A DNA stretch of 20,165 nt from IMG/VR virus record IMGVR_UViG_2684622619_000022; one strand, given 5' to 3'. Source of the DNA: a virus (Duplodnaviria; Heunggongvirae; Uroviricota; Caudoviricetes). This document shows positions 1 through 3,000 of the stretch, piece by piece. The number at the start of each line of letters is the position of its first letter. Positions within the stretch are counted from its first letter, which is position 1. The position numbers are program-made.

Positions 1-3000
1 CGTTACTGCGGCGCAGTTCACGATTTTCACGTTCCAGCTCTTTCAGACGCTGACGTTCAGCGCTGGTGAGCCCACCATCACCGCCCCCGGTATCCCGCTC
101 ATGCTGGCGAACCCAGACACGCAGAGTCTCCGGCGTACAGCCAATCTTTGGGGCAATGGAACAAATTGCCGCCCACTGTGAGTCATATTCATCCTGACTT
201 TCCAGAACCATACGAATCGCCCGCTGACGGACTTCGGGGGAAAAACGAGTATTTTTAGTCATCCTGTTTACCTCTTTCTCAGGGAGTTTAGTCTCCAGGA
301 TTTCCGGGGCGGTTCAGTTTATCACTATGCGTAAGTCAGATGAATTTAAGGGAAAAAAATGTCAGCCAAAGTATGGGTTTTAGGGGATGCGGTCGTAGAT
401 CTCTTGCCAGAATCAGACGGGCGGCTACTGCCTTGTCCTGGCGGCGCGCCAGCTAACGTTGCGGTGGGAATCGCCAGATTAGGCGGAACAAGTGGGTTTA
501 TAGGTCGGGTGGGGGATGATCCTTTTGGTGCATTAATGCAAAGAACGCTGCTAACTGAGGGAGTCGATATCACGTATCTGAAGCAAGATGAATGGCACCG
601 GACATCCACGGTGCTTGTCGATCTGAACGATCAAGGGGAACGTTCATTTACGTTTATGGTCCGCCCCAGTGCCGATCTTTTTTTAGAGACGACAGACTTG
701 CCCTGCTGGCGACATGGCGAATGGTTACATCTCTGTTCAATTGCGTTGTCTGCCGAGCCTTCGCGTACCAGCGCATTTACTGCGATGACGGAGATCCGGC
801 ATGCCGGAGGTTTTGTCAGCTTCGATCCCAATATTCGTGAAGATCTATGGCAAGACGAGCATTTGCTCCGCTTGTGTTTGCGGCAGGCGCTACAACTGGC
901 GGATGTCGTCAAGCTCTCGGAAGAAGAATGGCGACTTATCAGTGGAAAAACACAGAACGATCGGGATATATGCGCCCTGGCAAAAGAGTATGAGATCGCC
1001 ATGCTGTTGGTGACTAAAGGTGCAGAAGGGGTGGTGGTCTGTTATCGAGGACAAGTTCACCATTTTGCTGGAATGTCTGTGGATTGTGTCGATAGCACGG
1101 GGGCGGGAGATGCGTTCGTTGCCGGGTTACTCACAGGTCTGTCCTCTACGGGATTATCTACAGATGAGAGAGAAATGCGACGAATTATCGATCTCGCTCA
1201 ACGTTGCGGAGCGCTTGCAGTAACGGCGAAAGGGGCAATGACAGCGCTGCCATGTCGACAAGAACTGGAATAGTGAGAAGTAAACGGCGAAGTCGCTCTT
1301 ATCTCTAAATAGGACGTGAATTTTTTAACGACAGGCAGGTAATTATGGCACTGAATATTCCATTCAGAAATGCGTACTATCGTTTTGCATCCAGTTACTC
1401 ATTTCTCTTTTTTATTTCCTGGTCGCTGTGGTGGTCGTTATACGCTATTTGGCTGAAAGGACATCTAGGGTTGACAGGGACGGAATTAGGTACACTTTAT
1501 TCGGTCAACCAGTTTACCAGCATTCTATTTATGATGTTCTACGGCATCGTTCAGGATAAACTCGGTCTGAAGAAACCGCTCATCTGGTGTATGAGTTTCA
1601 TCCTGGTCTTGACCGGACCGTTTATGATTTACGTTTATGAACCGTTACTGCAAAGCAATTTTTCTGTAGGTCTAATTCTGGGGGCGCTCTTTTTTGGCCT
1701 GGGGTATCTGGCGGGATGCGGTTTGCTTGACAGCTTCACCGAAAAAATGGCGCGAAATTTTCATTTCGAATATGGAACAGCGCGCGCCTGGGGATCTTTT
1801 GGCTATGCTATTGGCGCGTTCTTTGCCGGCATATTTTTTAGTATCAGTCCCCATATCAACTTCTGGTTGGTCTCGCTATTTGGCGCTGTATTTATGATGA
1901 TCAACATGTGTTTTAAAGATAAGGATCACCAGTGCGTAGCGGCGGATGCGGGAGGGGTAAAAAAAGAGGATTTTATCGCAGTTTTCAAGGATCGAAACTT
2001 CTGGGTTTTCGTCATATTTATTGTTGGGACGTGGTCTTTCTATAACATTTTTGATCAACAACTTTTTCCTGTCTTTTATGCAGGTTTATTCGAATCACAC
2101 GATGTAGGAACGCGCCTGTATGGTTATCTCAACTCATTCCAGGTGGTACTCGAAGCGCTGTGCATGGCGATTATTCCGTTCTTTGTGAATCGGGTAGGGC
2201 CAAAAAATGCATTACTTATCGGTGTTGTGATTATGGCGTTGCGTATCCTTTCCTGCGCGCTGTTCGTTAACCCCTGGATTATTTCATTAGTGAAGCTGTT
2301 ACATGCCATTGAGGTTCCACTTTGTGTCATATCCGTCTTCAAATACAGCGTGGCAAACTTTGATAAGCGCCTGTCGTCGACGATCTTTCTGATTGGTTTT
2401 CAAATTGCCAGTTCGCTTGGGATTGTGCTGCTTTCAACGCCGACTGGGATACTCTTTGACCACGCAGGCTACCAGACAGTTTTCTTCGCAATTTCGGGTA
2501 TTGTCTGCCTGATGTTGCTATTTGGCATTTTCTTCCTGAGTAAAAAACGCGAGCAAATAGTTATGGAAACGCCTGTACCTTCAGCAATATAGACGTAAAC
2601 TTTTTCCGGTTGTTGTCGATATCTCCATATCCTTCAACCGGAAAATAATAATACTAAAATGCTTAGCCCTGCTAATAATCGCCTAATCCAAACACCTCAT
2701 TCATGTTCTGGTACAGTCGCTCAAATGTACTCCGGATACACGGTTCGCTGATTTCCAGGACATTGTCGTCATTCTGCGACCTGTCCCGTGTATCACGGGC
2801 CTGCGAATTCATCAAGGAATGCATTGCGGAGTGAAGTATCGAGTCACGCCGTATTTCGCTATCAGGATTCTGTGTGATGGTTACATCGCCCGGCCCTGGG
2901 CTGTTTAGTCATCAGCGCTTTCTGACAGTGCTGAGATTTCAACCTGTTGCAGTAAAAATGAGTAGATATAGGGCAAGTGTGCTGCCAAACCCATCGTTTA

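Follow-up and report, generated by a model that had tools for sequence, protein, structure and literature searches.

The window analysed here, a contiguous 20,165-bp stretch, aligns collinearly over its whole length with Escherichia coli O157:H7 clade 8 (subgroup 8_32) strain CEC13091, a human isolate from Japan, 2013 (PMC9997748); the two are identical over positions 1–19729 and differ by 12 clustered single nucleotide polymorphisms (SNPs) at 19730–20009. The left-hand part of the window (Table 1) carries the fructokinase gene cscK and the sucrose permease gene cscB, both intact, whose products (WP_001274894.1 and WP_001197016.1, respectively) have accessions common to CEC13091 and to strains without the insertion described below. 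The genes lie 71 bp apart on one strand, cscB being the second gene of the cscKB operon, and this arrangement of a fructokinase gene followed by a sucrose/H+ MFS permease gene in one operon is that expected of a csc regulon. Upstream of cscK, the window opens within an insertion sequence; the initial annotation had placed an IS629-like end at position 316, 42 bp (317–358) before the cscK start at 359, and the terminal inverted repeat (IRL), orfA and the alignment of uninserted genomes all agree with that placement. An Rfam search of window positions 1–3000 found no RNA element in the spacer.

Table 1. Features of the window and of the uninserted cscA–cscK spacer. Positions are those of the window unless a record (L001, CEC13091; L002, uninserted O157 allele) is named.
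Feature	Position	Strand	Evidence or remark
Left (IRL/orfA) end of IS629/IS1203, cut by the window edge	1..316	-	
orfA, N-terminal 87 codons	2..262	-	ATG at 262-260, minus strand; NF033516 (IS3 family transposase)
Terminal inverted repeat IRL	292..316	-	TGAACCGCCCCGGAAATCCTGGAGA on the minus strand; alignment of both IS ends
Target-site duplication GTTT, right-hand copy	317..320	.	Other copy at L001 5003-5006, outside the window
Native cscK-proximal stretch, 42 bp (remnant core promoter, 5' leader, Shine-Dalgarno)	317..358	+	Identical in uninserted O157 genomes
TATCAC, putative -10 hexamer of the cscKB promoter	320..325	+	Retained part of GGTTTATCA; conservation and CRP phasing
Shine-Dalgarno AAGGGA of cscK	348-353	+	
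cscK, fructokinase, intact	359..1273	+	NCBIfam equivalog NF006957, 507 bits (cut-off 450)
cscB, sucrose permease (oligosaccharide MFS transporter), intact	1345..2592	+	TIGR00882, 594 bits
P22-like prophage remnant (truncated tail needle knob protein, DNA transfer and ejection proteins)	7242-10091	+	
intS	10266-11459	-	
tRNA-Arg(CCT), argW	11585-11659	-	
Control-region elements of the uninserted spacer	L002 5862-5873, 5907-5922, 5926-5937, 5948-5963, 6000-6008		

A megablast of window positions 1–1400 against 5426 complete E. coli genomes returned thousands of IS629/IS1203 copies matching positions 1–316, including annotated IS1203-family copies with 100% identity to the window, while uninserted O157 genomes aligned from base 317 onward only. 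The CEC13091 element is complete at exactly 1310 bp (L001 5007–6316), with its final 316 bp held in the window. Its imperfect terminal inverted repeats begin with TGAACCGCCCCGG, which together with a length of ~1310 bp characterises IS629/IS1203; 21 of the 25 terminal bases agree between IRL and the opposite repeat (IRR) of this copy, and window positions 304–316 (...CCGGGGCGGTTCA) are the reverse complement of the IS629 IRL. The 87-residue OrfA fragment matches the IS3 family transposase model with E = 1.2e-7, under the whole-protein cut-off only because it is a fragment. A programmed −1 frameshift joining two overlapping open reading frames is annotated by RefSeq in the CEC13091 copy, and beyond the window the ALIL pseudoknot (Rfam RF01497) scores 121.5 bits at L001 5865–5981. 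IS629 (synonymous with IS1203v) is a 1310-bp member of the IS3 family (IS51 group) with an orfA/orfB frameshift and ALIL, and the element here is the same. Its transposase is transcribed away from cscK, toward cscA, with the IRL and transposase start facing cscK and the IRR facing cscA.

The insertion has left a clear signature. The uninserted O157 allele, as in strain PV15-279, reads ...GCGAAAAAGAGGTTTATCACTATGCG... with GTTT occurring once, the CEC13091 allele reads ...GAGGTTT, then IS629, then GTTTATCACTATGCG..., and taking the IS and one GTTT out of CEC13091 restores the uninserted reference sequence exactly; a target-site duplication at the far end of the element, envisaged in the initial annotation, is thereby found. 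Entry was at G6001–T6004 of the uninserted allele (L002), the last duplicated T being the first base of TATCAC. A full 1310-bp IS with GTTT on both sides is a genuine transposition and not a chance resemblance, and the event would have been a copy-out-paste-in insertion of IS629 into the cscKB promoter core, in CEC13091 or an almost identical O157:H7 isolate of clade 8. IS629 generally makes target duplications of 3–4 bp (PMC3271280, Rump et al. 2011), has no strict target sequence and occupies strain-specific sites useful in typing, all of which hold for the copy described here; it is the most active IS in O157:H7, where strain-specific insertion sites are well documented (Ooka et al.; PMC3271280).

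The junction is present in a single genome among 5426 complete ones (96-bp junction probe), an exact 35-bp junction pattern gave 0 matches in the metagenome contigs scanned, and the 215-bp cscA–cscK spacer is uninterrupted in 2658 of the 2663 csc-positive complete genomes. Sister strains of clade 8_32 (PMC9997748 for the clade), for example CEC01311, are without the spacer IS. Given this rarity, its absence from sister strains and a spacer otherwise uninterrupted, the insertion is derived, recent and strain-specific. No mention of the cscA–cscK spacer as an IS629 site was found in the searched papers that treat IS629 with csc or sucrose, and the case is an undescribed instance of a well-known type of event, that is, ordinary IS629 micro-diversity.

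Other insertions have struck the same sucrose locus. Eight further complete O157:H7 genomes (4276, 9234, 2159, 2149, 1130, Gim1-1, NE92 and NCCP 13918) carry an independent IS629 inside cscK, of 1310 bp (L003 5671–6980), at the window equivalent of 983–986, in the same orientation and with the duplication AAAG; that copy differs from the CEC13091 spacer copy by 1 nucleotide. In Shigella the csc genes are commonly broken by IS elements, with IS1, IS3 and IS4 in cscK or cscB (PMC11251922). Sucrose use is expected to be lost or decaying in all these cases, but the insertions in cscK of O157:H7 and in Shigella hit coding sequence, whereas in CEC13091 the damage is confined to the promoter/operator region, which is cut off from two intact genes. 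Evidently the csc locus can be dispensed with and has been a repeated target. Separately, the non-O157 strains PE164 and E105 have an IS3-family element in the matched stretch from cscK to the 5' part of cscB.

In uninserted O157 genomes, the 42 bp before cscK continue into the 215-bp spacer, which contains two CscR operators and two CRP-like sites. This spacer was aligned across seven sequences, from O157, Shigella flexneri, two divergent Escherichia, two Citrobacter amalonaticus and Pluralibacter gergoviae, the CscK proteins of the aligned taxa being 65–99% identical to that of the window. Two GTTAACGTTAAC palindromes, the CscR operators, are invariant in all seven sequences, as is the block GGTTTATCA, and TTTTGTGATC CRP half-sites were found in the intergenic alignment of the seven taxa. 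The operators were described by Jahreis et al., as paraphrased in two papers (PMC11251922 and PMC3938415); in the same papers (PMC3938415, PMC11251922), both csc transcription units are given as cAMP dependent, with the operators thought to sit in the spacer. The CRP site between the operators, TGCGATGAATATCACA, matches 9 of 10 consensus positions and serves cscA, while the second CRP-like site (CRP2), beginning TTTTGTGATC, agrees with the consensus better in Pluralibacter (9 of 10 positions) than in E. coli (7 of 10). Spacing is conserved as well: the operators are 64 bp apart and the centre of operator B lies 24 bp from that of CRP2 in every aligned sequence, and the T of TATCA follows the CRP2 centre at 48.5 bp in six of the seven, Pluralibacter being slightly shorter at 47.5 bp.

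On the strength of conservation and CRP phasing, TATCA(C/A) is the likely −10 element of cscKB. With TATCA(C/A) as the −10, CRP2 would fall at about −60.5/−61.5, a class I geometry, and native transcription is predicted to begin near window positions 331–333. The lac P1 promoter has the classical class I position, the same CRP-to-−10 distance there being 49.5 bp. As a −10 hexamer TATCAC is a poor match despite its invariance, lacking the usual T at −7. An outline of the conserved cscKB promoter architecture follows from the alignment: operator, 24 bp, CRP site, 48.5 bp and TATCA. A consensus promoter scan found nothing in the native spacer, nor at the junction, and cannot discriminate between them; with a position weight matrix (PWM), the best matches in the native spacer lie in the AT-rich operator region, under the shuffle median, and the cscKB promoter is not picked out, a miss that is expected for a CRP-dependent promoter. 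Two other native promoters were considered and rejected: ATGACA-17-CATGTT (L002 5939–5967), whose −35 is not conserved beyond O157 and Shigella and whose spacer the CRP site would overlie, and TTGCGA-16-TATGCG, whose −10 is not conserved and with which CRP would fall at −66.5, facing the wrong side of the helix. The GGTTTATCA block, a poor −10 match and yet invariant, may have an additional role.

Comparison with reference csc loci places the insertion inside the cscA–cscK intergenic region. Beyond the IS, CEC13091 has the rest of the spacer, intact cscA, an intact LacI-type cscR, a dsdX remnant and dsdA, with cscA and cscR encoding the same protein accessions as in uninserted strains; the divergent cscA and cscR that neighbour cscK in a csc regulon at the dsdA/argW locus are therefore present in CEC13091, outside the window. 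The initial annotation had seen neither a divergent invertase gene nor a regulated promoter region on this side of cscK, and both are missing from view because the window is cut inside the IS. Its suspicion that the native csc regulatory region had been disrupted is well founded, as the IS sits between the control sites (operators and CRP-like sites) and cscK, inside the invariant GGTTTATCA block at the 5' edge of the likely −10. It had also allowed for a harmless arrangement, with the 42 bp as natural upstream sequence, an intact invertase gene beyond the IS and the IS outside any regulatory element; the first two parts of that description apply, but the last does not.

What still adjoins cscK is the −10-like hexamer, the leader and the Shine-Dalgarno, together with both coding sequences, while the −35 region, CRP2 and both operators are displaced from cscKB by 1314 bp (IS plus duplication), and cscKB is no longer directly preceded by the bidirectional control region. 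The cscA side keeps both operators and the CRP site, the insertion lying 73 bp beyond the centre of operator B, and regulation of cscA and cscR, with their own operators and CRP site, should stay normal. The csc genes of EHEC O157 are functional and CscR-controlled, loss of cscR raising cscK 156-fold, cscB 28-fold and cscA 58-fold, and loss of csc abolishes growth on sucrose in EHEC O157 (PMC7486766); sucrose fermentation is lost when cscB is defective but not when cscK is (PMC10132054).

The best explanation as a whole, at a probability of roughly 0.7, is that IS629 split the cscKB promoter, with activation and regulation largely lost and the strain sucrose-negative or slow/delayed in sucrose use. 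cAMP-CRP-activated, sucrose-inducible transcription of cscKB would largely disappear, transcripts beginning at the native start region would need to extend through 1.3 kb of the IS as untranslated antisense RNA, and CscB permease would be scarce, leaving the strain with a sucrose-negative or slow phenotype. As judged from sequence, the insertion most likely weakens sucrose use, with expression of cscKB reduced and unregulated. Several points tell against such promoter loss: TATCAC has no T at −7 and owes its assignment as −10 to its conservation and its phasing with CRP; the sequence leaves room for a weak promoter within the IS end or at its border; and repression by CscR may outweigh activation by CRP, in which case removal of the operators might raise basal expression.

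Excision of the IS promoted by IEE could yield delayed sucrose-positive revertants or papillae. A parallel is offered by Shiga toxin-producing E. coli O121:H19, in which IS600 in lacZ undergoes IEE-mediated excision, shown experimentally to give delayed lactose utilisation, iee being reported in the serotype (PMC9397093). There an IS3-family element disables sugar use, as the present one would, and by analogy a reversible 'delayed' phenotype is plausible in CEC13091, although the lacZ insertion is in a coding region and its effect experimental, whereas the present insertion is in a spacer and its phenotype is predicted.

An activating insertion is unlikely. In this reading the left end of IS629 would serve cscKB as an outward or hybrid promoter, as the initial annotation had suggested it might; with a promoter such as TTTACC-16-TAGTCT, or IS sequence combined with TATCAC, cscKB would become constitutive and free of CscR and CRP. 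It would draw on the −10-like TATCAC, leader and ribosome-binding site that are kept, other strains gain an adaptive benefit from csc derepression when sucrose is low (PMC11251922, PMC3938415, PMC6599523), and hybrid promoters created by IS elements are a known phenomenon (PMC9330008). As in the IS911/IS2-type hybrid promoters (PMC9330008), an IS3-family end stands directly upstream of a −10-like hexamer, but here the adjoining end is IRL and not IRR, and it is without a −35-like hexamer at the right spacing; the outward −35 described for IS911, a characterised member of the IS3 family, belongs to IRR (PMC9330008), the end that here faces away from cscK. The three hexamers 16–18 bp upstream of TATCAC (GGATTT, AGGATT and CAGGAT) match TTGACA at no more than two of six positions, so that the junction has no −35 at the 16–18 bp from a flanking −10 that defines a hybrid promoter, and among the PWM candidates listed there was no pairing with TATCAC. 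A consensus scan of window 1–500 found no sigma-70-like promoter. The PWM, which was built from textbook hexamer frequencies and used only to show the absence of a strong outward site, ranked TTTACC-16-TAGTCT (267–294) as the best plus-strand candidate in the IS end; its −10 has A at position 2 and T at position 6, and its score of 6.5 is below both the median best score of shuffled 230-bp sequence (9.1) and that of lac P1 (9.1). The eight O157 genomes with IS629 inside cscK further indicate a locus that tolerates inactivation. The proposal of an outward or hybrid promoter thus finds no support in the junction sequence.

A stronger version, in which the IS629 left end is an unrecognised outward promoter (TTTACC-16-TAGTCT at 267–294, antisense to the orfA leader) that renders cscKB constitutive and independent of CscR and CRP, an adaptive gain for low-sucrose scavenging, would have wide consequences and is very doubtful; if it were true, every other IS629 copy would emit antisense RNA and drive neighbouring genes, and constitutive cscKB could help growth on low sucrose.

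Improbable too is a near-neutral insertion, with transcription from the regulated native start reading through the whole IS, antisense to transposase, into cscKB, and sucrose use largely kept. Only one weak terminator-like hairpin (5-bp stem, L001 5016–5028) occurs on that strand, no more than in shuffled sequence, a point in favour of such read-through. If TATCAC is the −10, however, the promoter itself is split and no start would remain upstream of the IS. Even if transcription did begin upstream, it would leave 1.3 kb of RNA untranslated, the kind of RNA on which Rho typically acts, and Rho-dependent polarity or termination could follow. Deletion of cscR allows read-through from cscAp to activate dsdA (PMC7486766); unlike in that case, cscR is intact here.

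An assembly artefact, the IS having been misplaced by the assembler at a truly uninterrupted locus, can be set aside as highly improbable: IS629 is multicopy, with up to 51 matching places per genome (the csc match included), and CEC13091 was assembled from long nanopore reads (PMC9997748), but the copy is exactly 1310 bp with a clean 4-bp duplication, its removal restores the uninserted sequence exactly, the assembly used only reads of at least 15 kb (PMC9997748), and the window, although 12 sites set it apart from the RefSeq record, shows the same junction.

Promoter splitting by IS629 is of limited consequence outside the biology of the strain. One O157:H7 clade 8 isolate is predicted to be atypical in being sucrose-negative or delayed in sucrose use, and its biochemical identification could be affected. 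IS629 typing gains a further site; the insertion could also act as a natural experiment on the cscKB promoter architecture.

Downstream of cscB (window 2672–5894) are a 60-residue DUF4942 fragment, a recombinase-family gene of 208 codons on the minus strand (3190–3816) and a hypothetical gene of 470 codons (4482–5894) that is frameshifted in strain PV15-279. Between cscB and argW, intS and the P22-like remnant take the place that CPS-53 has in K-12. On the right-hand side of argW, window 11780–20165 contains the integrase and early region of a Stx2a prophage, the latter encoding (15354–15980 and 17466–18443; same in L004) an MT-A70 family methyltransferase and ParD-family and HigA-family antitoxins, with no adjoining partner toxin for either antitoxin among the annotated features listed. 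The twelve SNPs relative to CEC13091 fall in an ead/Ea22-like prophage gene; across window 19500–20165 no complete E. coli genome matches better than 98.3%, and the cluster points either to gene conversion among paralogous prophage genes or to an artefact of polishing. In CEC13091, stx2A/B lie ~19–20 kb past the window end, a position consistent with the Stx2a phages of clade 8, which are integrated at argW (PMC9997748).
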